Below, in pieces: positions 1,237 through 20,000 of a stretch of DNA of 20,000 nt (positions are counted from its first letter, which is position 1; the number at the start of each line of letters is the position of its first letter). The stretch lies in IMG/VR virus record IMGVR_UViG_3300031566_000024, one strand, 5' to 3'. The position numbers were made by a program, and so were the translations under genes. The notes under the pieces are model-generated. The model was given only the letters and a program-made list of their open reading frames with translations. It made no database searches and was not told where the DNA came from. The DNA is from an uncultured virus (IMG/VR IMGVR_UViG_3300031566_000024) (taxonomy: Duplodnaviria; Heunggongvirae; Uroviricota; Caudoviricetes).

Positions 1237-2640
1237 ATGAACGATATTGAAACTGTGGCAAGTGCTGACACGTGGTATTTGTATGGCGATGGATTGCTTT
1301 TGGAATTAGGCATGGATACCACTTTACTTTTGTCACGAATAATAAATATATACACCCAATTGAATTTTACAACCGATTACTTTGAGTGTAGTGTTGTATC
1401 TATAAGAAGAGAGATTGAAATGTCTGCTCATAGACAACGGATTTCAATAGAAAAACTAACAAAGTTGGGAATAATAAAGACTAAAAATAGCGATTTGCCT
1501 GCAACACGAAAAGTAAAACTTTGTAACACAAACATTATCAATACTGTAAAGGATGTTTATGGTGGTGAAGAGGGGGGTGGTTTTGAGCAAAACAAAAGTG
1601 TCGAATTTGAGTTGATTTTTCCAAAAACACAGTTATATATTACATATATAACATTATATTCTCTTTATTATTTATTAATAATAAATAATAGAGTTATCAA
1701 AAATGATAACTCCTATTTGTCCACTTTAAATTTTTTTTCAAATAGGAAAATACTTTCTTTTGAAGAGAGAGAAAAAAAAACAAAAGAAAAAAACAATGAA
1801 CTAAAAAACAAAATTTTATCCGATGAAAATTTCTTGGAAATTATAAGAACATTTTCAGATTTTCCGGCCCCGGCAGTTACACACAATGTGAACAAAATAA
1901 CGAACACACTTGCAGAAGCGTACAGTCTATACCAGCACTTGCTTAACGGTACATTTTTCGATAATTGTAAACAAATCACAGAGCCGTGGATCGTTGCCAA
2001 TAAAGGCGATTGGAGTAAATTAAAGGAAAAAAAATGGAAACACAAGAAAATTATGAAAGTACTGAAAGAGGCCGGAAAACCATATTTACCAGACTATTAC
2101 CCATTTTCAAAAGATGACAAAAAAAAGATTTTGCCGAAGAGCTTGCCACAATTATTTTATAATCCCTTCGTAAAAAAATGCCCGTCTTCTTTTATTCGTG
2201 CCTATTTACAGCCGCCGAAACTATCTCCGGTACAAGAAATCACAGACAAGTACCCGGGAATTACTACTGAAATTTCGCAGATGTGCGACGTAACACCTCG
2301 GATAATTATACGTGCTATCACATATTTAGAGCCCTTCTACAATGAAATTTGTAACAAGTCGATTATTTTTGAAGATGGTAAAAAATACACCCGGTTATCC
2401 CTTGACATGGAGTTTTCGCGCCATTTGGGAACGTTTGTAAAGTTTTTAGGCGTGTATGTCGAGTGGTTAGGGTCTTTATCGGAAAAATGGCGCAACCAGC
2501 AATCAGTAAGGCTCGCGGGTGTTACGCGTGGTTGGTTCGACGAGTACTTGAAAAAAAATTATGATATTATTTTAGAGCCTAATGACAGCTATTTACAACG
2601 GTTGGCGCGAGATTTGAAAAGAATGAAATCCGGTTATTGA
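1237..2640 (+). CDS. Putative replication initiator / origin-binding protein with N-terminal winged HTH
   Basis: AGGAG SD. N-terminal IRREIEMSAHRQRISIEKLTKLGIIKTKNSDLPATRKVKL resembles wHTH domains of phage replication proteins. It is followed by an AT-rich linker and lies upstream of the helicase. Confidence 0.55.
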   Translation: MNDIETVASADTWYLYGDGLLLELGMDTTLLLSRIINIYTQLNFTTDYFECSVVSIRREIEMSAHRQRISIEKLTKLGIIKTKNSDLPATRKVKLCNTNIINTVKDVYGGEEGGGFEQNKSVEFELIFPKTQLYITYITLYSLYYLLIINNRVIKNDNSYLSTLNFFSNRKILSFEEREKKTKEKNNELKNKILSDENFLEIIRTFSDFPAPAVTHNVNKITNTLAEAYSLYQHLLNGTFFDNCKQITEPWIVANKGDWSKLKEKKWKHKKIMKVLKEAGKPYLPDYYPFSKDDKKKILPKSLPQLFYNPFVKKCPSSFIRAYLQPPKLSPVQEITDKYPGITTEISQMCDVTPRIIIRAITYLEPFYNEICNKSIIFEDGKKYTRLSLDMEFSRHLGTFVKFLGVYVEWLGSLSEKWRNQQSVRLAGVTRGWFDEYLKKNYDIILEPNDSYLQRLARDLKRMKSGY

Positions 2641-2660
2641 AAAAAAATTAAAAAAATATC

Positions 2661-2689
2661 TTGACATGTTAAAAAAAATAGGTTATTAT
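2661..2689 (+). promoter_or_regulatory. sigma70/sigmaA-type promoter upstream of the ncRNA/tRNA island
   Basis: TTGACA (2661-2666), 17-nt spacer, TATTAT (2684-2689), with an A-rich UP-like tract upstream. Confidence 0.7.
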
Positions 2690-2741
2690 GGCGAACAATT
2701 AACGATGACAAGGGAAACCAGGGAGACGGCAAGATGAAAAA

Positions 2742-3172
2742 CTTAGTGAAAATTATTTTTATAACGATCGTGAATAATCTCACTAAGAAAAATAATTTTG
2801 TAATAAAATCCTTTACGACACGTGTGCTTACAGTTTATGATGGTTTATGGCCTGTAAAAAACACTACTTCGGAAGCAGGAACGGTGACAAGGCTGATAAC
2901 CGTAAACCGTGATAGCAAAAGGATTGCTAATACCATTCGTATCAATGGTCTACCTGGTTATGGTTAATTGAGGTTTAGCATGGTCTGTGATTTTGGATCA
3001 GTTCGGTGGGTGTCATACACTTTCCGGAAGGCAAAATCTAGAATCGGATTGACTTCTGTTGTGTTTGTGCAACGTGCAACGTCGCATGATAAACATGATG
3101 GGAAAAATCAGGATCTTGTTGAAGGGGTTCGGGGTGGTGCTGCCAGGTCTCACCCCGAAAAACCTTTAACGA
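2742..3172 (+). ncRNA. Large structured, probably pseudoknotted ncRNA candidate (family unassigned)
   Basis: Many hand-paired nested helices, e.g. 2905-2913/2957-2965, 2932-2937/2944-2949, 2988-2994/3104-3110, 3118-3125/3163-3170 and 3128-3136/3151-3159. The loop at 3137-3148 is complementary to 2976-2981 and 2952-2957. Confidence 0.55.
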
Positions 3173-3200
3173 ATGATTATTTTTTTTGTAGGGTGGTCAT

Positions 3201-3386
3201 GTGTCTAATATTTGGAATGATGGGATTTGTAATGCGTGTGGTGCAGTAGTTGAAGAAATGTCAAGTGCAAGACTTGGTCAAGGTTTTGATTATCAAAATA
3301 GGTGTACCAATTGCAAATGTGTTAACCATTGCTGGCATCATTGCGGAGATATGGAAGAACTTGATTATTACAAGCATAATCAATAA
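3201..3386 (+). CDS. Small Cys/His-rich (zinc-ribbon-like) protein
   Basis: GTG start with AGGGTGG upstream; CNAC ... CTNCKCVNHC motifs; sits in the unstructured gap between RNA elements. Confidence 0.6.
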   Translation: MSNIWNDGICNACGAVVEEMSSARLGQGFDYQNRCTNCKCVNHCWHHCGDMEELDYYKHNQ

Positions 3387-3481
3387 GTGTATTGACAGAG
3401 TAGTATGGTACTAACGCTACCGTTCAGGCCTTACAAGCTTGGTAAATCGGATGGTTTGTACTGTACTCTGTGAATGCACTT
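3385..3481 (+). ncRNA. Rod-shaped hairpin RNA candidate
   Basis: AAGTGTATT-G-ACAGAGTA (3385-3402) pairs with TACTCTGT-G-AATGCACTT (3464-3481); inner ACCGTTC/GGATGGT and TTAC/GTAA helices. Confidence 0.45.
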
Positions 3482-3500
3482 GTATTTAAAGCCTGTTAAA

Positions 3501-3574
3501 CGGGGTATATGTATGATTTGGTGTAATAAACAGGTCGTACCTGTTTATCGGAGGTTCAAGTCCTCCCGCCCCGA
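3501..3574 (+). tRNA. Atypical tRNA-like element, anticodon CGT (Thr), weak D arm
   Basis: Acceptor CGGGGTA/CGCCCCG (one mismatch); T arm GGAGG-TTCAAGT-CCTCC; anticodon arm AACAG-GTCGTAC-CTGTT; D stem barely pairs; no encoded CCA. Confidence 0.55.
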
Positions 3575-3627
3575 ATACATACAGTCTGCCAGGTAGGCAG
3601 ACTGTATAATCTAAAGTTTTTTTCAAA

Positions 3628-3720
3628 CGGGCTGTGGTCTAATTGGGAGCGGCTATCTGATCCATAGCAGTAAGACAAGGGCAAACGCCTTTATTGTGAG
3701 TTCGAATCTTACCGGTCCGA
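3628..3720 (+). tRNA. Aberrant 93-nt tRNA-like element (isotype undetermined)
   Basis: Acceptor CGGGCTG/CGGTCCG; T arm GTGAG-TTCGAAT-CTTAC; D stem GTCT/AGAC with an inserted hairpin; anticodon-position arm AGGGC-AAAC-GCCTT has only a 4-nt loop. Confidence 0.55.
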
Positions 3721-3789
3721 TTGAAAAAACAGTATTGCTAATTTTTAATTTCATTAATACTTATGGGGTGTCACTCTCATAAGTATTAT

Positions 3790-3860
3790 GGCCTAATAAT
3801 CTAATGGTAGGATATTAGATTTTCGATCTAAGTACCGGGGTTCGACTCCCTGTTAGGCTA
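3790..3860 (+). tRNA. tRNA-Glu(TTC)
   Basis: Full cloverleaf: GGCCTAA/TTAGGCT, D stem ATCT/GGAT, TTAGA-TTTTCGA-TCTAA, CGGGG-TTCGACT-CCCTG; CCA not encoded. Confidence 0.9.
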
Positions 3861-3862
3861 AT

Positions 3863-4075
3863 GAACAAGCACGAACTGAGCAATAGGAATTATGATAAAC
3901 GACACACTTTAAGTTTTTAATTCCTCCCTTTTGAGCTATACGAGAACAAGGTAGACACAAAAGGGCAGCGTGTTACGTGGGTGGCGAAGGAAAGTCGATG
4001 ACTAAACCCGTTTACCGCTAGACGAACAAGCGGAAATCTAATTAGTACAAAGCAGGATTATACCCGCGCCTGTTG
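3863..4075 (+). ncRNA. Second structured RNA candidate downstream of tRNA-Glu
   Basis: Abutting helices AGGAATTA/TAATTCCT (3885-3925) and CCCTTTTG/CAAAAGGG (3926-3965), then CGTGGGT/ACCCGCG (3976-4068) enclosing ACTAA/TTAGT and CCGCT/AGCGG; GAACAAG occurs three times. Confidence 0.45.
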
Positions 4076-4098
4076 AAATAATGGCGGGTACATTTTTT
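4061..4098 (+). terminator. Intrinsic terminator candidate
   Basis: TACCCGC/GCGGGTA stem followed by CATTTTTT. Confidence 0.55.
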
Positions 4099-4141
4099 AA
4101 AAATTATATTTATATATGGCTACTCCTTTTAATTTATTTTA

Positions 4142-4180
4142 CCGGTTACATATATTGATAATATGTAACCGGGTTATTTT
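4142..4180 (+). terminator. Terminator-like perfect inverted repeat
   Basis: 12-bp CCGGTTACATAT/ATATGTAACCGG followed by GTTATTTT. Confidence 0.5.
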
Positions 4181-4238
4181 ACACGCAATCTCTTTTTGAG
4201 ATCATTATATATATTCCATTTTAGTCAGTTCTTTTTTG

Positions 4239-4281
4239 CCGGTTGTTATTTATCCTTTTTGTAATAACCGGTTATTTTTTT
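4239..4281 (+). terminator. Terminator-like inverted repeat
   Basis: CCGGTTGTTA/TAATAACCGG followed by TTATTTTTTT. Confidence 0.5.
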
Positions 4282-4298
4282 CTTAAAGTGAGACGTTA

Positions 4299-5771
4299 AT
4301 GAATTTTACGATTGATAGAGTTGACAATAAAAAATTAAAAATGCTTGTTATATCAATGATAGTGTCAACAAAAGTGTGCAGTGAAATTATACCTGTACTG
4401 AGAGTTAATCTTGATTTATTTTACGAGGTGTTCGAAAGTTTCTATAAGCCGGTTGTAACCTGGATCATTGAATTTTACGAACTTACAGAGAAAGCACCAG
4501 AAAAACATATACAAAATATATTTGACGACAAATCAGAAAAACTTGAAGGTACTGAGAAAAGTTTAATTCAGACTTTTCTGAAAACTCTTAATGATGAATA
4601 TGTGAAATATGAAAAATACAATGAAGATTACGCAATTGATCAGGCAAAAATATACTTGCGTGAAGCGAATCTGGCATTACTCACAAAAAAAATAAGTGCT
4701 GCAACAAAAGCAGGGAAACTAGATGATGCTGAAAATTATATTGCAACATATAACCAGATCGAAGCCAAAACACAGATATGCCAAGAGACGTCTATTGTGT
4801 ATGGTAAAGAATTTTGGGATGATGATCCGGATAACAATCCCGATTCACTTTTTATAATGCCTGGTGCACTGGGCGACATTGCAGGCCCATTTGCACGCGG
4901 TGATTTTGTAGCGTTTAACGGCCCCAAAAAGCGCGGGAAATCATTCTGGCTCAAGCAAATAGCAATATGGGCGATGGAAAGTAATCTCAATGTAATCTAT
5001 TTCAATATGGAAATGGCACATAAGAAATGCATACGCAGATTTAGACAATATTTCAGTGCCGAAACTCTACGATTGAAAGATAAAAAAACTGGATATGATG
5101 AAATCAGAATTCCGAAATTCATTGAAGCGGGTGACGAGTCTGGACAATGGGAAATGTCATACACAATGAAAAAGAAAAAGGGTGTAACAAAAGAGAAATC
5201 TAAAAATAAACAAAAACAATTACAAATCAAATACAGGGGCGATATCCGATTCATTACGTATGCAGCAAACTCATTAACGCTGTCTATTGCTGATAAGAAA
5301 ATTGACGAGTATTTCAACAATGGCTTTGTTGCAGACGTGATAATATTTGACTCAATGGATTTGTTGAAATCTGGAAAACGGGACCAGGTACGGCAGGAAA
5401 TCAATGAAAAATGGGGTGTAGGTCGAGAACTCGCACAAAAAAAACACGCGTTAATTGTTACAGTATCGCATACAAACAAGGAAACTAATAAAAGAGCTAT
5501 TACAGGTTCGGACTTTCAAGAGGATGATAGAAAAGGCAATTGGTTAACTGCTGGATTTGGGCTTAACCAAACAGAGGATGAAAAAGAGACCGGTATTATG
5601 CGCGTGAATTGTTTAGTGAGTCGTGACAATTTTTTCACATCAAAAAATTTTGTATATGTTTTGGAGTGTCGAGATATTGGGAAAATTTATCTGGATTCAA
5701 GACATCAATGGGAAATAAAAAATAATGAGAGGAGTAGCAATGAAAATAAGCAAAAGCCAGCTTATCAGTAA
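4299..5771 (+). CDS. dnaB: Replicative SF4 (DnaB/gp41-like) helicase
   Basis: Walker A GPKKRGKS, H1a YFNMEM, Walker B IIFDSMDL, H3 VTVSH, helical N-terminal domain. Confidence 0.88.
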   Translation: MNFTIDRVDNKKLKMLVISMIVSTKVCSEIIPVLRVNLDLFYEVFESFYKPVVTWIIEFYELTEKAPEKHIQNIFDDKSEKLEGTEKSLIQTFLKTLNDEYVKYEKYNEDYAIDQAKIYLREANLALLTKKISAATKAGKLDDAENYIATYNQIEAKTQICQETSIVYGKEFWDDDPDNNPDSLFIMPGALGDIAGPFARGDFVAFNGPKKRGKSFWLKQIAIWAMESNLNVIYFNMEMAHKKCIRRFRQYFSAETLRLKDKKTGYDEIRIPKFIEAGDESGQWEMSYTMKKKKGVTKEKSKNKQKQLQIKYRGDIRFITYAANSLTLSIADKKIDEYFNNGFVADVIIFDSMDLLKSGKRDQVRQEINEKWGVGRELAQKKHALIVTVSHTNKETNKRAITGSDFQEDDRKGNWLTAGFGLNQTEDEKETGIMRVNCLVSRDNFFTSKNFVYVLECRDIGKIYLDSRHQWEIKNNERSSNENKQKPAYQ

Positions 5772-6801
5772 GATAGGCTTTTTTAAAAAACTAAAAAACC
5801 AGGCGGATGATAACCGTATATACATAGATGGTTCTGCTATGTACAAAGACGGTAGAATTTCTTTTTTGGTTGTACAGTTAGAAACTGAAAATTTAAAAAA
5901 ATATGTAATACCATACGCAGAATTTGTGAAGTTTCTTGACCGGGTGAAGGCCGACAAAGGCGATGAGATTACAATCGAGTATAACGAAGAAGGTACACAA
6001 TTACAAATCAAATGTGGGCGGAAATGCTGTAATTTACCGGTTCTTAAATGGGATGAGAAAAACGATAAAAAGATTGAAACATTTTACGATATACAACAAG
6101 GAAACGAGCTGTCTGTTGATTTTGTACAGGCGTTACAGCACTGTAAGGGCACAATTGACAAACAACGCGGCACGCCTAATAATAATATTGTAGTCGAAAA
6201 AGATTACACATGGTCATTCAACAGATACGCTTTTGCTAGGATGAAAAATAATATAAGTTGTTTGGACACTTTGTACATTCCCGTTGAATATGTAGATATC
6301 TTAACGGTTTTGGGGCCCGTTAAAATTAGTCAAACAAAAAATGGCTTATTTTTTGCAAGTGCTGGTAATGATATATTACAAATACACCAACCTGCATATC
6401 AAAGCCAGCATACCCCGAAAGATTTTTTCGATAAAATCACCATGTCGCCGGACATCTTCGACAGTAAAGCGTTGTTAGATGGAATTAGAACAGCCGAAAT
6501 ACTTGTTGAAAAAGAAGAAATTAAGCGTAGGAAGGTACTACTCAATTTTCAATTGGAAAAAATAACAATTACCGCTGAAAATGATAGCAGTAGTATTCTG
6601 TGTGAAATTTCACACAAGAGCCGGACGCTACAAAAAATTATTATAGACCCTGTAAATTTCACAAAGGGCATAAGTTTGTGTGAAAAAAATAATGTAATCA
6701 ATATAATTTTTCATGATATTAACGAAAAAGCCGGATACGTGTTGTTTACCAATGATAACAAAGAATATTTGGCAACTTATGAGAGAGTTATTAATGAATG
6801 A
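5740..6801 (+). CDS. Divergent beta-type sliding clamp
   Basis: GAGGAG SD before ATG 5740; ~353 aa with three-domain beta-clamp-like periodicity (e.g. TWSFNRYAFARM); lies between helicase and polymerase with a clamp loader nearby. Confidence 0.65.
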   Translation: MKISKSQLISKIGFFKKLKNQADDNRIYIDGSAMYKDGRISFLVVQLETENLKKYVIPYAEFVKFLDRVKADKGDEITIEYNEEGTQLQIKCGRKCCNLPVLKWDEKNDKKIETFYDIQQGNELSVDFVQALQHCKGTIDKQRGTPNNNIVVEKDYTWSFNRYAFARMKNNISCLDTLYIPVEYVDILTVLGPVKISQTKNGLFFASAGNDILQIHQPAYQSQHTPKDFFDKITMSPDIFDSKALLDGIRTAEILVEKEEIKRRKVLLNFQLEKITITAENDSSSILCEISHKSRTLQKIIIDPVNFTKGISLCEKNNVINIIFHDINEKAGYVLFTNDNKEYLATYERVINE

Positions 6802-9355
6802 AGGGTTTTTTGATTTTGAAAAAGCACAAGCGGAAATAAAGGAGCTTTCCTCCATACGCTCGGATACTCTAAAAAAAAGTGTCTGTGAAAAATGTAAACT
6901 TTGTAAAAATCAAATTCCAAAAATGGACGCAATCGGGAAAGGGAAAAAAAAGATTCTTATTGTAACTAATAATCCCGAATGTATTGATGGTCAGATAGAA
7001 AAAGAAAAGCTTAGAAACATTCTAAAAGCAGAAAATATTGATTTGAATAAAGATTGTTGGTACGCATACGCGGTAAAGTGTTACACCGATACTGTATCAA
7101 TTGCGCGGGTTAAGCACTGCAAACAATTTCTAATTGATCAAATAGAAGAACTTAAACCCCATAAGATACTTATACTCGGTAAGGCCAGTATGCAGGCATT
7201 GTATTGTGATGAAATCACTATTAGCGATATGGAAAGATATTACCAGGCTGAAATTCCTTGTCAAAAATACAAAGCTTTTGTATATCCGTTCTATTCAATT
7301 GAATATATGGATTACCAGAAAAATACGATACTATGGGGCCGCTTCAAAAAAACAATACACAGGTTAGCAGTAAGAAAAATTGAAGATTTTAAAGATTATG
7401 GTGATTTAAAAAAAGATTACAATCATTTACTGTCAACTGATCTAGTCAAAATCAAAAAGTTTTTGGCTAAAATCATTCCAAATCAAGACCCTCTGTTTTT
7501 TGATTACGAGACAACCGGATTAAAGCCGCACGCACCAGGGCATGAAATAATCTGTGTATCTATGCAGCAGGGTAAAAACGCGCTGGCATTTCCAATGTAT
7601 GATGAGTTAAAGCCAATAATAGCCGAAATTTTATTCGATAAAAAGATTAAAAAAGTGGCGCACAACATGGCTTTTGAAGATGATTGGAGTTATTTCATTT
7701 TGAATACCAATGTAAATGGGTGGTTTTGGGATACACAATTAACTGCACATGTTATAGACAACCGGCAATATTTTACCAGTCTCAAACATCAAGTGTTTTT
7801 GAATTGCGGTGTTTTGGGATATGAAAAAGAAGTATCCACACACATAAAGTCTACGAACGGTACTGCCAATGGGTTCAATCGCATGAAAGAGCTTGATATT
7901 GAAAAAGTATTACTTTATTGTTTCTTTGATACTATGTTTATGGCGGATTTATACCCCTATCAAAAAGCCATTATAAAAAAAGACAAACATCTTGCAAAAG
8001 GAAATAAATTTTTATTACGTTCCATGAGAGGTTTAAATTGTGTACAAAAAGCGGGAATTTGTGTGGACATGGTACAAATACTTAAAAATGAAGAATCGTT
8101 AAATAAGCGGTTGTTTTCGATCAATGAGAGTATACAAAAATGTAAGGAAGTCAAAAAGCTTAATTTGCCGCCTGGTCAAAAGTTCGACCATACTAGCAAT
8201 AATAAATTGAAAGACCTATTATACTGTGTGCTAGGCTATGAGACAGAAAATGCTACTACCGGTGGGGCGAAGTCAGTAGAAAAAGAAGCACTTGAAAAGA
8301 TCAATTCTGAATTGTGTAAGTTGGTGTTGGAGTACAGACGATTATTCAAAGCATTGTCTTACGTATTACAGCTCAAAAGGGAGGCAGTAGAGATTGAAGG
8401 ACTTTGGAAAATATTCCCGATGTACAGGCTGTCGGGTGTAGTAACATATCGCGGTAGTGCAAGTAATCCCAGTTGGCAGAATATACCGGTTCGAGATCCG
8501 GAAATTAAGAAACTCATTAGAGGTTGCGTAATTCCGAGTCCTAACAATCAAATAGCGGAAGCGGATTACTCAGCCATTGAGGTTGCCGCAAGTGCCTGCT
8601 ACAACGAAGATCCAAAATTGATAGAGTATGTAACTGATCCCACAAAAGATATGCATAGAGACGTTGCATCGTTGGTTTTTGGTTGCAAGCCGGAAGAGGT
8701 TTCAAAACCAATGAGGCAAATGGTTAAGGGCGGTTTTGTATTCAGTCAATTCTACGGTGATTGGTGGAAACAATGTGCGGAAAATATGTGGATTGAAATG
8801 ACATCGGAATTTAAGAAAATTTTAAAAGCCAATACGGGAATTTCAACACTCGGAAAATTAAAATATAATGATCGTGGGTACATTGATAAGGCGGCCGGAT
8901 TTTATAATCATATTCAAGAAATTGAATATGATTTTTGGTACAAAAGATTTAGGGTGTATAACCAATGGAAAAAGGATAATTGGACGGCTTACCAGAAAAA
9001 TGGATATGTAGAATTAAAAACCGGTTTTCGAATGACCACTATTCAAAAACGAACTAAAGTTAATAATGGATGTATACAAGGAAGTGCCTTTCATATATTA
9101 TTATGGAGCCTTTACGAAATTGTAAAGTATCTAAAAAAAGGAAATTATAAGACTTGTATAATTGGACAAATACATGACTCACTAATTTTTGATTTTGCGC
9201 CGGGTGAGCGGGAAGAGCTTTTACCTGCGATAAAATATATAATGGAAAAAAAAATTAAAAAACATTGGAAATGGATTATTATACCGCTGCGTGTAGAGTT
9301 TGAAATTACACCGGTAAATGGTTCATGGGATCAAAAAAAGGAGATAACAGAATGA
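6794..9355 (+). CDS. polA: Family A DNA polymerase with N-terminal family-4 UDG-like domain and 3'-5' exonuclease
   Basis: CEKCKLC..AVKC..HC..ELKPHKILILG (UDG-4 fold); Exo I FFDYETTG, Exo II AHNMAFED, Exo III YCFFD; motif A EADYSAIE, motif B RQMVKGGFVFSQFYG, motif C QIHDSL. Start placed at ATG 6794, overlapping the clamp gene end. Confidence 0.93.
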   Translation: MNEGFFDFEKAQAEIKELSSIRSDTLKKSVCEKCKLCKNQIPKMDAIGKGKKKILIVTNNPECIDGQIEKEKLRNILKAENIDLNKDCWYAYAVKCYTDTVSIARVKHCKQFLIDQIEELKPHKILILGKASMQALYCDEITISDMERYYQAEIPCQKYKAFVYPFYSIEYMDYQKNTILWGRFKKTIHRLAVRKIEDFKDYGDLKKDYNHLLSTDLVKIKKFLAKIIPNQDPLFFDYETTGLKPHAPGHEIICVSMQQGKNALAFPMYDELKPIIAEILFDKKIKKVAHNMAFEDDWSYFILNTNVNGWFWDTQLTAHVIDNRQYFTSLKHQVFLNCGVLGYEKEVSTHIKSTNGTANGFNRMKELDIEKVLLYCFFDTMFMADLYPYQKAIIKKDKHLAKGNKFLLRSMRGLNCVQKAGICVDMVQILKNEESLNKRLFSINESIQKCKEVKKLNLPPGQKFDHTSNNKLKDLLYCVLGYETENATTGGAKSVEKEALEKINSELCKLVLEYRRLFKALSYVLQLKREAVEIEGLWKIFPMYRLSGVVTYRGSASNPSWQNIPVRDPEIKKLIRGCVIPSPNNQIAEADYSAIEVAASACYNEDPKLIEYVTDPTKDMHRDVASLVFGCKPEEVSKPMRQMVKGGFVFSQFYGDWWKQCAENMWIEMTSEFKKILKANTGISTLGKLKYNDRGYIDKAAGFYNHIQEIEYDFWYKRFRVYNQWKKDNWTAYQKNGYVELKTGFRMTTIQKRTKVNNGCIQGSAFHILLWSLYEIVKYLKKGNYKTCIIGQIHDSLIFDFAPGEREELLPAIKYIMEKKIKKHWKWIIIPLRVEFEITPVNGSWDQKKEITE

Positions 9356-10278: not shown

Positions 10279-10307
10279 TTGACATCAACAAAAATAACGG
10301 GTATAAT
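10279..10307 (+). promoter_or_regulatory. Consensus sigma70/sigmaA promoter for the SSB/recombination genes
   Basis: TTGACA (10279-10284), 17-nt spacer, TATAAT (10302-10307). Confidence 0.85.
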
Positions 10308-14541: not shown

Positions 14542-15330
14542 ATGAAATTATTATTTACAGCTGATTGGCACATTAGAACCACACAGCCCGTAAATCGAAT
14601 TGACGATTTTTTACTGCTACAAAAAGAAACTGTAAAATTCATATACGATACTGCATTTGATAATCATGTTGATTATGTAGTTATTGCTGGTGATCTTTTC
14701 CATTGCGCAAGGGACCGATATCCACAGGAAATGTTAATCTTTCTTAATGATAGCATGTTACAGTTTTCTACTGTGTACATACCGGGTAATCACGATCTGT
14801 TATACCATGCAGACACTAAGGAATATATGTCAAATATAGGATTGCTTAATCGTATGTCTGACAGATCAGACATACCGAACAATATTGATGTCTATCATCA
14901 ATATTGTTCAATTGTGGTACCACCATATATCGAAAAAGGCACCACTGCAAAAGATCTATGCGAACAGTCAATCAAAGACGTTATATTAGTTGGTGATAAT
15001 CACCAATCATTTGTGTATCGGCACCCGGAAACTATGCAATTATTAGTTAATCCTGGTTGTATCACGCGCCAAAAGCTATCAGAGAAAGATTACAAACCCT
15101 CAATATATATTTATGATTTTGATAATAAAAGCGCACAGCGTGTGTATCTCTTAGATAAGAGAGATAACGTGTTTGCAGAAAATAGAGCAAAAAACTTGAA
15201 ATCAATAGAATCATATCGACGCATTGACGGTGTTGAAGGTCTTGATTTTGAAGAAAAAATATTAAATTATAATAAAAAAATGATGGTAAAAGAACCTGTC
15301 AAGGCAATAATCATGGAGTGTTTGTCATGA
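14542..15330 (+). CDS. sbcD: Mre11/SbcD/gp47-like metallophosphoesterase nuclease
   Basis: TADWH, AGDLF, PGNHD, GDNH and NPGC motifs. Confidence 0.9.
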   Translation: MKLLFTADWHIRTTQPVNRIDDFLLLQKETVKFIYDTAFDNHVDYVVIAGDLFHCARDRYPQEMLIFLNDSMLQFSTVYIPGNHDLLYHADTKEYMSNIGLLNRMSDRSDIPNNIDVYHQYCSIVVPPYIEKGTTAKDLCEQSIKDVILVGDNHQSFVYRHPETMQLLVNPGCITRQKLSEKDYKPSIYIYDFDNKSAQRVYLLDKRDNVFAENRAKNLKSIESYRRIDGVEGLDFEEKILNYNKKMMVKEPVKAIIMECLS

Positions 15331-18711: not shown

Positions 18712-20000
18712 ATACAGTACGGCATATATATTTTCAAAATATAGAAATTGCGGTGAGTAGTTCAGATGTATGTTCTTATACGTGTGGTGGTTCTAAGTGG
18801 GTATCCTATGATATATGGCTGGCTGTGAAGAACATTAGAAAGATTACTTATTGTCAAACCGAAAGAGATAGAGCGTGGTTATCATACAAAGGATATAATT
18901 TTTTAGCTGTGGAAGCTGCTACACAGTCTAACAATATTGTACGTTACAAAAATGACATTGGTATTTACCACAAAGAGTGGATCACTCTAAAAGGTTGTTT
19001 GGACTATATAGACATGGTAGAAAAGAAAAAACAGGAGAATAGAATATTACCCACTACTGTAAGAATAGACGGTGCCATAAAATGCAATATAAAAGCTTCT
19101 GTATCGAAAGACGTAAAAGAAAAACTAGAAGATCTTAAATCATATGTAACAACTTATTGTGGATATGTAATAAGAGATTGTGATCCCGCATTACATAATG
19201 GAAATAATTTTTATGTTGATGGTACAGAGTGTACAGACGATGTTAAGCCGTATTTGGGTACCATCTATTATGAAAAGATGATCGATGTAAAAAATAGCAT
19301 TGATCAGCGCAGAAAGTTACAGGAAGAGATGAAAAAAGAACATACTGACAAAACGAATACAGTACGGCATATATATTTTCAAAATATAGAAATTGCAGTG
19401 GATTGTTTAGGTCGTTGTAGGTATAAGAATGATGGTATATATCATGCCTCTTATAATATATTGGCGGCTATAAAAATTATTAAAAGTTTGGATCTTATGC
19501 CCTGGGCTGGTCCTAGAAATTTTATAACGTATAAAGGTTATACATGTACAATTAAGAATTTTCGATTTGTATATCAAGATGATGCAGGTATACTTTGGAA
19601 AGAGTGGGATAATATAAATGATTTTTTGGACTATATAGACATGGTAGAAAAGGAAAAACAAGAAAAAAGAACAGTAAACGAACATACTACCGTATACAAA
19701 AAAGAGGCCCTAAGAAAATCAAGACCTTCACCAGATGTTTTTGTGTTCAAAACATCTGGTGAAGGCAATATAAGAATGTATAAGGGACGTGTGATAAGTA
19801 AAGCCAGACGCGACGACACAACAGGATATTACCAAGTCAAATGTTTTCATAGGAAGACAAAAAATGCAAAAATGTTTACGCTAATTACTACGGAAAAAGT
19901 ATATCCATCTACCCCGGAACTTGAAAAAGAGTATAATTTCTATTTGGAACGTGTATGTTATATGCAGGAACAAATTAACCGATTAATTAAAAAACTAAAT
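18708..20000 (+). CDS. Hypothetical protein with internal ~100-aa duplication, truncated by window end (>431 aa)
   Basis: Absent from ORF track. ATG 18708 (ATGA overlap) is open to the edge; NTVRHIYFQNIEIAV...LDYIDMVEK occurs twice. Confidence 0.8.
   Translation, partial: MNTVRHIYFQNIEIAVSSSDVCSYTCGGSKWVSYDIWLAVKNIRKITYCQTERDRAWLSYKGYNFLAVEAATQSNNIVRYKNDIGIYHKEWITLKGCLDYIDMVEKKKQENRILPTTVRIDGAIKCNIKASVSKDVKEKLEDLKSYVTTYCGYVIRDCDPALHNGNNFYVDGTECTDDVKPYLGTIYYEKMIDVKNSIDQRRKLQEEMKKEHTDKTNTVRHIYFQNIEIAVDCLGRCRYKNDGIYHASYNILAAIKIIKSLDLMPWAGPRNFITYKGYTCTIKNFRFVYQDDAGILWKEWDNINDFLDYIDMVEKEKQEKRTVNEHTTVYKKEALRKSRPSPDVFVFKTSGEGNIRMYKGRVISKARRDDTTGYYQVKCFHRKTKNAKMFTLITTEKVYPSTPELEKEYNFYLERVCYMQEQINRLIKKLN
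18710..19652 (+). repeat. Two pairs of exact direct repeats bounding diverged domains
   Basis: 42 bp identical at 18710-18751 and 19355-19396; 28 bp identical at 18998-19025 and 19625-19652. Confidence 0.9.

Follow-up and report, generated by a model that had tools for sequence, protein, structure and literature searches.

Introduction

The tRNA region of bacteriophage T4 is transcribed into a single precursor of about 1.5-1.75 kilobases (kb) that gives rise to an open reading frame (ORF), eight tRNAs and two stable RNAs, species I and II, and it carries segB (PMC2330249). Phage tRNAs are also known as tools of counter-defence (PMC10264068, PMC11464382 and PMC11555353). Here we describe a locus in an uncultured virus of the class Caudoviricetes (IMG/VR record IMGVR_UViG_3300031566_000024), situated at positions 2661-4298 of the 20,000-nucleotide (nt) stretch of DNA that was analysed, hereafter the window. 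It combines a predicted promoter, small ORFs, two tRNA-like elements without anticodon loops, a tRNA-Glu and a predicted terminator. On balance, we favour the view that this unit is an early operon resembling a moron, specific to one lineage and organised on the plan of the T4 tRNA region. The tailed phage that carries it has a genome of 64.8 kb and appears to be virulent.

As in T4 (PMC2330249), one promoter, here a predicted one, precedes ORFs, tRNAs and extra structured RNAs, and the series ends in a terminator. Unlike T4, the present unit has a single decoding tRNA, its additional RNAs can be recognised as former tRNAs lacking anticodon loops, no homing-endonuclease gene is found, and the unit sits inside a replication module. 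A tRNA-like structure serves as a processing signal in mascRNA of MALAT1. The t-elements of plant mitochondria (PMC1920247) offer a further parallel: the non-decoding acceptor/T-arm mimics described here could likewise be cut by RNase P and RNase Z, and such cuts would fix where the adjacent RNAs start or stop. Both parallels come from organelles or the nucleus, however, whereas in the present unit such processing is a prediction. Among bacterial Y RNAs, YrlA of M. smegmatis does not decode but retains the D and T arms and the elbow of a tRNA; RNase P cleaves it, and CCA is added to it (PMC4201824). In contrast to the Y RNA systems, no Ro60/TROVE gene occurs among the ORFs scanned here (79 from the complete virus record G001 and 10 from the window), Rfam yields no Y-RNA match and no Ro-binding stem motif was identified.

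Phage tRNAs that evade tRNA-targeting defences through altered anticodon loops (PMC10264068 and PMC11464382) resemble our elements in that the unusual feature is concentrated in that loop. Those tRNAs still decode, whereas here the loop is abolished, so that the elements cannot replace cleaved host tRNAs. Finally, the GOLLD and ROOL RNAs (PMC12286853) are phage-associated structured RNAs found near tRNA genes, a likeness that a first-pass annotation of this DNA had raised. It finds no support in the covariance models of Rfam, which match tRNA only: no other family reaches its gathering score in the whole window, or an E value up to 10 in 2500-4400. ARAGORN, which also looks for transfer-messenger RNA, found tRNA genes only. 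The structured part of the unit differs from GOLLD and ROOL in consisting of tRNA-sized modules, hairpins and a probable mRNA.

Results

A predicted promoter and terminator delimit the unit

A sigma-70-type promoter, TTGACA-17-TATTAT, lies at 2661-2689 on the + strand, as do all other parts of the unit. With a consensus score of 11/12 it is second in rank among the matches in the 20 kb window; it is intergenic and has an A-rich tract upstream. Transcription is predicted to start near 2696. At the other end, an intrinsic-terminator-like hairpin with a six-T run occupies 4061-4098 (4068-4089 in the terminator scan). Its stem, 4061-4067/4084-4090, forms with a pair probability of 0.78 when the whole predicted transcript (2696-4098, 1403 nt) is folded. 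The layout is that of a T4-type tRNA operon, with a promoter upstream and a terminator downstream (both from consensus scans) and everything on one strand. The unit also has the properties of a moron, having its own predicted promoter and terminator and being absent from the same place in the 11 related loci mapped. Most of the anatomy proposed in the first-pass annotation held up: besides the near-consensus promoter and the terminator-like hairpins, we recovered the strong fold behind its "large folded RNA", the rod RNA, the perfect spacer hairpins, the two abnormal tRNA-like elements and the normal tRNA-Glu, each described below.

Two other promoter observations were made. A 12/12 sigma-70 consensus match is found at 10279-10307, between a clamp-loader-like gene and the following ORF, and the phage appears to use host-type promoters inside its replication block. 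The stretch 2645-2689 is about 80% identical to short high-depth contigs (50-83x) of other sequences in all four DNA runs; these matches probably reflect low-complexity, A-rich promoter likeness.

Beyond 4098, two more terminator-like hairpins follow in the interval 4142-4282: a perfect 12-base-pair (bp) hairpin at 4142-4172 (z -3.2; z scores refer to folding energy relative to shuffled sequences) and a hairpin at 4238-4272 (z -4.8), just before the helicase gene, which starts at 4299. Both end in TAACCGG(G)TTATTTT, and the 15-nt motif that these hairpins share is matched 3 times where 0.26 matches are expected. The two hairpins may act in termination or attenuation, or else be palindromes that bind a protein or belong to an origin.

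The last of these options bears on a different view of the whole unit, namely that it is a regulatory leader or a replication-origin region, in which a structured transcript driven by a strong promoter and passing through attenuators, or an origin-priming transcript, runs into the AT-rich palindromes of 4100-4298 with the tRNAs as passengers. The unit is suitably placed for this, between a 467-amino-acid (aa) protein and the helicase, at the head of a co-oriented block of replication genes; yet relatives do without a region of this kind. Ahead of the helicase gene stand three hairpins with T runs that no good promoter follows, the TAACCGG palindromes are repeated and the GC content falls to 0.31 in 4001-4500. 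Against this, the cumulative GC skew has no turning point at the unit, repeat, Pfam and PHROG scans identified neither iterons nor an initiator family at the unit or its upstream protein, and nothing ties the transcript to priming. We consider a leader or origin function very unlikely.

Two tRNA-like elements lack an anticodon loop

The complete 64,757-bp genome contains three matches to the Rfam tRNA model (RF00005), all of them in this unit, and none of the three encodes CCA. The most downstream is a canonical cloverleaf, tRNA-Glu(UUC), at 3789-3861, called by ARAGORN and scoring 64 bits where the gathering score is 29. In the codon usage of the phage, GAA ranks second (43.6 per 1000).

The other two are abnormal (E values for tRNA homology of 0.00018 and 0.0052 in a 1.9 kb search). 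tRNA-like 2, at 3628-3720 (3618-3729 with leader and trailer), exceeds the gathering score with 32.7 bits. In its Rfam alignment the D loop is enlarged by 26 nt and the "anticodon" loop has 4 nt instead of the 7 nt of the model, and ARAGORN reports it as "tRNA-???", with an 8-nt loop on a 3-bp stem; a decodable anticodon arm, with a 5-bp stem and a 7-nt loop, is missing in either description. In the minimum free energy (MFE) structure the element is a clean cloverleaf with four intact stems, in which a 24-nt hairpin, inserted after the GG, sits inside the D stem GUCU/AGAC and the anticodon arm has 6 bp with AAAC as its loop. Another 9 bp form between leader and trailer, lengthening the acceptor stem. 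Pair probabilities in the whole-transcript fold are 0.74-0.96.

tRNA-like 1, at 3501-3574, scores 27.3 bits, below the gathering score. ARAGORN makes no call at its default setting and reports tRNA-Thr(cgt) only at a relaxed threshold (-ps90); ACG is the rarest Thr codon of the phage. The T arm is intact, the acceptor stem has 6-7 bp with an A7.C66 mismatch, and the D stem is weak, with 3 bp made of A and U only. The anticodon arm (3526-3548) can close to a perfect 10 bp with a 3-nt loop. The 3' 26 nt are identical to those of a tRNA-Pro(UGG) in two unrelated viral contigs. An attachment (att) site was considered for this tRNA-Pro-like end and set aside, no integrase being found among the 79 ORFs of the genome and 10 ORFs of the window scanned.

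By our reading of the Rfam and ARAGORN output, both elements keep a 7-bp acceptor stem, a T arm with canonical T loop and the D-loop GG. These are the parts recognised by RNase P, RNase Z and the CCA-adding enzyme. Both elements should thus still be cut from a precursor, and probably remain substrates of RNase P and RNase Z; lacking an anticodon loop, they cannot decode. A role as decoy, sponge, stabiliser or some other active RNA is possible.

Variation was assessed between the two haplotypes of the region, that of the window (shared by L084 and G001) and that of L001, L083 and L085, which are 96.6% identical. All three changes within the tRNA-like elements keep pairing, one turning G-C into G.U and two turning G.U into Watson-Crick pairs; both changes in tRNA-like 2 are of the latter kind. 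In tRNA-Glu, one change improves a pair, one falls in a loop and one creates an A.C mismatch. The tRNA-like elements differ at 3/167 positions, compared with 30/714 four-fold sites of five flanking genes and 2/236 positions of the trailer, a comparison that recombination tracts make unsafe.

These data bear on two opposed views of the elements. According to one, they are selected tRNA mimics with an active role. As decoys or sponges they could occupy host factors, or defence nucleases, that hold a tRNA by its elbow and acceptor stem; alternatively, they could be stable scaffolds that RNase P and RNase Z release. In tRNA-like 2 all helices are intact, and its 24-nt insert forms a clean hairpin directly after the D-loop GG, a site at which natural tRNAs vary in length. 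Pairing survives at all three variable positions, few differences occur relative to the four-fold sites just given, and there is the precedent of phage tRNAs in counter-defence cited above. On the other side, with two haplotypes only and with recombination making local divergence uneven, the conservation argument is weak; a decoy for anticodon nucleases would be expected to retain its anticodon loop; tRNA-like 1 has a degraded D stem and the A7.C66 mismatch; and no homolog of either element was found in phage records, in 379 other loci or in representative bacterial genomes. Selection for mimicry is, in our judgement, an unlikely explanation.

The other view holds that the tRNA-like elements and the perfect palindromes are neutral relics at the DNA level with no function as RNA: decaying tRNA genes zipped up by template-switch repair, or scars of a homing-nuclease cassette that targets tRNA genes. 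The T4 tRNA cluster does contain SegB (PMC2330249). No nuclease family, however, was found in the ORFs of the island, even at E values up to 10, or among the scanned ORFs of the genome. Two features speak for relics. One is the state of tRNA-like 1, with its degraded D arm and an anticodon arm in which a perfect 10-bp palindrome leaves a minimal loop. The other is the local excess of such palindromes: the 64.8 kb genome has 18 perfect hairpins with 10 bp or more, and 4 of these lie within 3526-4172. The intact helices of tRNA-like 2, none of which shows random decay, argue against plain decay, and neither element is truncated or a copy of the tRNA-Glu beside it. A relic origin strikes us as unlikely, if slightly less so than selection for mimicry.

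Searches for similar elements were made in several collections. Each element was compared singly with phage records at E values up to 10, giving generic T-arm matches only. The exact 3' halves of tRNA-like 1 and tRNA-like 2 have 0 matches each in representative bacterial genomes and so give no clue to a host or donor. With nhmmer, eight segments of the island compared with the 379 other loci (1.57 Mb) showed generic tRNA likeness only; nearest to tRNA-like 2 was a 74-nt phage tRNA(UAA), at E 0.0014. A pattern for a D arm with an insertion overlapped a tRNA call in 2 of 111 viral-contig loci, neither resembling tRNA-like 2. A T-arm/acceptor pattern retrieved about 20 tRNA types as well as 18 places that lack a tRNA call; the 14 of these that were inspected read as partial or unrelated 3' pieces of tRNAs.

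In the course of these searches, viral contigs L304, L346 and L327 were seen to carry arrays of six or seven tightly packed tRNAs of 74-85 nt. Most read as tRNA-Leu, with five different anticodons; several have C1, and one is the tRNA(UAA) nearest to tRNA-like 2. A tRNA-Pro ancestry of tRNA-like 2, suggested by its C1-G72 pair, was dropped since many phage tRNAs in L304 and L346 start with C. On the minus strand of contig L283, at 276-346, ARAGORN reports a "tRNA-?(Ile|Tyr)(at)" whose anticodon loop is 6 nt long; tRNAs with altered loops are present in other viral contigs too.

The 5' part is highly structured and contains a conserved gene

The whole unit of about 1.6 kb had been described as containing only one convincing small ORF. 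We find one certain gene and two probable ones. ORF61 (3201-3386, + strand, GTG start) encodes a small Cys/His-rich phage protein that probably binds zinc and is certainly, as judged from its family, a real gene. The family comprises 73 cluster representatives at E values up to 0.001, 15 of them at up to 1e-10, and its alignment has invariant W5, D7, G8, C10, C13, C35, C40, H46 and H59 (W, DG, CxxC, C, C, H and YY-H). The Pfam domain PF23895 (Phage_zn_bind) matches 8 of 32 aligned members (best E 7.5e-06); ORF61 itself has no Pfam match at E values up to 0.01. On these alignments the family link is solid. The 6 other viral loci with ORF61 contain no tRNA or Rfam match.

The two upstream ORFs are orphans. 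ORF77 (2734-2967, + strand) begins with ATG and has GGGAGA 8 nt upstream; ORF89 (2980-3249, + strand) has an ATG at 2980, an in-frame TTG at 2968 and GAGG 7 nt upstream. Their codon scores, 0.224 and 0.160, compare with 0.181 for the proven protein ORF61 and with a null of 0.069 +/- 0.078 obtained from the open frames of shuffled sequence. Only 4% of the shuffles have, on this strand, a pair of open frames that each reach 65 codons. No homologs of either were found, the protein collection holding only a 68-aa haplotype form of ORF89, which in the other haplotype ends about 20 codons earlier. The ESM Atlas model of ORF77 is poor (predicted local distance difference test, pLDDT, 0.39). From these indicators ORF77 is reasonably likely to be coding, and for ORF89 the balance tips slightly the same way. 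Altogether, about 45% of the region is probably coding.

The same part folds strongly. The segment 2690-3200 has a folding energy of -157.8 kcal/mol, compared with -123.9 +/- 6.4 for shuffles (z -5.26, matched by 0/100 shuffles), and the first 286 nt alone reach z -4.81 (0/200). In the whole-transcript fold, the 5' end pairs with 2946-2970 at a probability of 0.98-1.0, closing a highly structured domain (2696-2970) that encloses the whole of ORF77. A GC-rich hairpin with two 10-bp helices lies at 3116-3172, at the 3' end of ORF89 (z -3.90 for 3100-3200, pair probability 0.94-0.95), and the haplotype change G3137A retains its pair. Three of the six haplotype changes in 2975-3180 convert G.U to Watson-Crick pairs, and three of the five differences in ORF89 fall at third codon positions; these changes are hints only and fit either RNA structure or coding. 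A structured mRNA whose ribosome-binding site is partly buried is compatible with all observations on the 5' part.

Such folding also invites the idea that a single large and ornate system of non-coding RNA, of the GOLLD or ROOL kind, makes up the entire island and that its ORFs are spurious. The island does stand out, with a mean z of -1.9 in 150-nt windows against -0.41 elsewhere, and with the strong fold of 2690-3200. However, ORF61 is a conserved protein, Rfam has no match to GOLLD, ROOL or any other family except tRNA, and 3862-4098 folds no better than shuffles. Nor is strong folding peculiar to the island: fifteen other 511-nt windows of the phage gave z values from +1.0 to -2.6, except for 14800-15310, which at -4.87 folds strongly inside an ordinary gene, so that structure is compatible with coding in this phage. 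A single ornate RNA seems extremely improbable, and the suggestion of "one composite RNA" finds no support in the 5' 700 nt, which contain a conserved protein gene and two probable ORFs.

A rod, spacer hairpins and an unstructured trailer

Between ORF61 and the tRNA array, 3383-3483 (+ strand) forms a long irregular hairpin, the rod (z -3.24, with 3387-3479 as the folded core), whose outer helices have probabilities of 0.89-0.98. Six haplotype changes fall at its paired sites; 4 retain the pair and 2 break it. The rod is a candidate RNase III-type processing site. Within the array, a perfect 12-bp spacer hairpin with a 5-nt loop lies at 3579-3607 (+ strand; z -6.58, probability 0.99) and a second one, of 14 bp (11 perfect), at 3755-3788 (+ strand; z -3.5, probability 0.91), ending at position -1 of tRNA-Glu.

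The 3' trailer (3862-4060, + strand) has no ORF of at least 40 aa and no significant fold. A "second folded RNA" had been placed here, but 21/200 shuffles fold as well as 3862-4098 (z -1.29). The haplotypes differ at 2 of the 236 nt of 3862-4097. Pairing of 3903-3913 with the ribosome-binding site of the helicase gene was considered and rejected: it is at about chance level, and A4285T in the other haplotype breaks it with no compensation.

The unit is absent from related loci

Relatives of the helicase at up to 41% identity were taken from viral and metagenome contigs. In the 11 related loci mapped, an ORF of 400-550 aa precedes the helicase directly or after one small ORF. Island DNA, the small ORFs and tRNAs at that place are absent from all the loci retrieved. 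The whole island has no DNA homolog in phage records, and none was found by blastn in 161 loci. The closest helicase relatives have one tRNA-Met only, upstream of the initiator-like ORF (L090, 4361-4434; L091, 4492-4565), and tRNA genes seem to have landed repeatedly at the start of the replication module. The L090/L091 relative comes from the same sampling campaign as the window.

Contigs of the four DNA runs contain only the two haplotypes and recombinants of them; recombinant island contigs are present in run X4. A look for RNA runs that contain the stretch found none. Recombination is also evident next to the unit. The 467-aa protein is 77% identical between haplotypes while its flanks are 97-99% identical (window 1237-2640, L001 2933-4309), and this region is a mosaic recombination tract. 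The protein had been named a replication initiator; it has no Pfam or PHROG match, which makes that label a tentative one.

The phage genome

The window belongs to an AT-rich (36% GC) tailed soil phage. All sampled words of the window are present in the virus record G001, which is 64,757 bp long, rated 100% complete and circularly permuted relative to the window. Its Pfam scan identified portal, major capsid, tape measure, baseplate and terminase small subunit proteins, together with RecA-like, clamp-loader-like and UDG-PolA proteins. The gene downstream of the unit encodes a DnaB-like helicase (phrog_19, E 1e-31).

Several features elsewhere in the genome were recorded. Very strong local RNA or DNA structure occurs at 14776-15000 (z -6.0 and -5.3), where adjacent perfect hairpins at 14852 and 14877 lie inside a gene for a 262-aa Metallophos-like protein (14542-15330). 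The longest perfect hairpin of the genome, 15 bp (z -5.5), is located at window positions 19651-19875 (G001 1357-1397) and reads as a minus-strand terminator-like site within a plus-strand ORF. An 880-aa ORF at 6713-9355 has PF03167, PF01612 and PF00476 and corresponds to a family A DNA polymerase with an N-terminal domain of the uracil-DNA-glycosylase superfamily. Five tandem genes for leucine-rich-repeat proteins (PF12799, E down to 2e-48) are found on the minus strand of G001 at 35798-39429.

Discussion

The first-pass annotation had seen in this locus an ORF-poor RNA island. Most of its anatomy is real, so that the observation is confirmed in part; as an island of RNA with hardly any genes it is not, and the best-supported description is that of a unit resembling the T4 tRNA operon more than a new kind of RNA machine. 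The accompanying interpretation, a polycistronic precursor cut by tRNA-type processing, fares better than its alternative of a composite RNA: at the level of prediction, the promoter, the terminator and three acceptor/T-arm modules are all in place.

In the moron-like operon that we favour, host RNA polymerase would start at the sigma-70 promoter and produce a highly structured precursor of about 1.4 kb ending at the terminator near 4098. Its 5' half would be an mRNA for the two orphan ORFs (77 and 89 aa) and the conserved zinc-binding protein (61 aa), and its 3' half a tRNA array made up of tRNA-like 1, tRNA-like 2 and tRNA-Glu(UUC) with perfect hairpins between. The rod might be an RNase III-type site that parts the mRNA from the array. 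Host RNase P, with RNase Z or 3' trimming, and the CCA-adding enzyme would then excise the three acceptor/T-arm modules, while the spacer hairpins would protect the new 3' ends. tRNA-Glu would supply the heavily used GAA codon, and the tRNA-like elements would be former, non-decoding tRNAs that act at least as processing punctuation. The analysis establishes the elements in the sequence, their fold statistics, the protein family, the absence from relatives and the genomic setting; co-transcription, every processing step and any role of the tRNA-like elements are inferred from these.

Some observations weigh against this picture. With three terminator-like hairpins directly before it, the helicase gene is left with no obvious promoter, in which case the unit may be a regulated leader of the replication operon instead of a closed moron. 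No homologs were found for ORF77 or ORF89, ORF77 has an Atlas model of low confidence, and the z of about -5 over 2690-3200 means that the 5' part could be a structured non-coding RNA rather than an mRNA. The leader-trailer pairing of tRNA-like 2 might hinder RNase P or RNase Z, and in the other haplotype tRNA-Glu has its A.C mismatch in the acceptor stem (position 3791).

A bolder proposal is that a lytic phage uses one early promoter to make purpose-built tRNA mimics devoid of an anticodon, one of them fitted with an additional hairpin arm in the D loop and a helix between leader and trailer. Once released by host tRNA enzymes, these would serve as decoys or sponges, binding up host factors of defence or translation that recognise tRNA. 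They may also act as punctuation in the precursor, freeing hairpin-capped small RNAs and the closed 5' RNA of about 275 nt (2696-2970). We rate this as distinctly improbable. On sequence alone, the unit is a single-lineage curiosity.

Its wider interest depends on which account of the tRNA-like elements is right. Phage tRNA clusters are now regarded as counter-defence loci besides being suppliers of codons. If the decoy or punctuation reading were true, the elements would represent a new class of phage tRNA-derived regulatory RNAs. If they are functional at all, the locus would add non-decoding tRNA mimics and tRNA-punctuated release of small RNAs in bacteria, in an array where two of the three members have only the half that enzymes recognise. 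If they are relics, it still illustrates the decay of tRNA genes in phages, in which anticodon arms zip up and the D loop takes in an insertion. It would also illustrate how morons enter the replication module.

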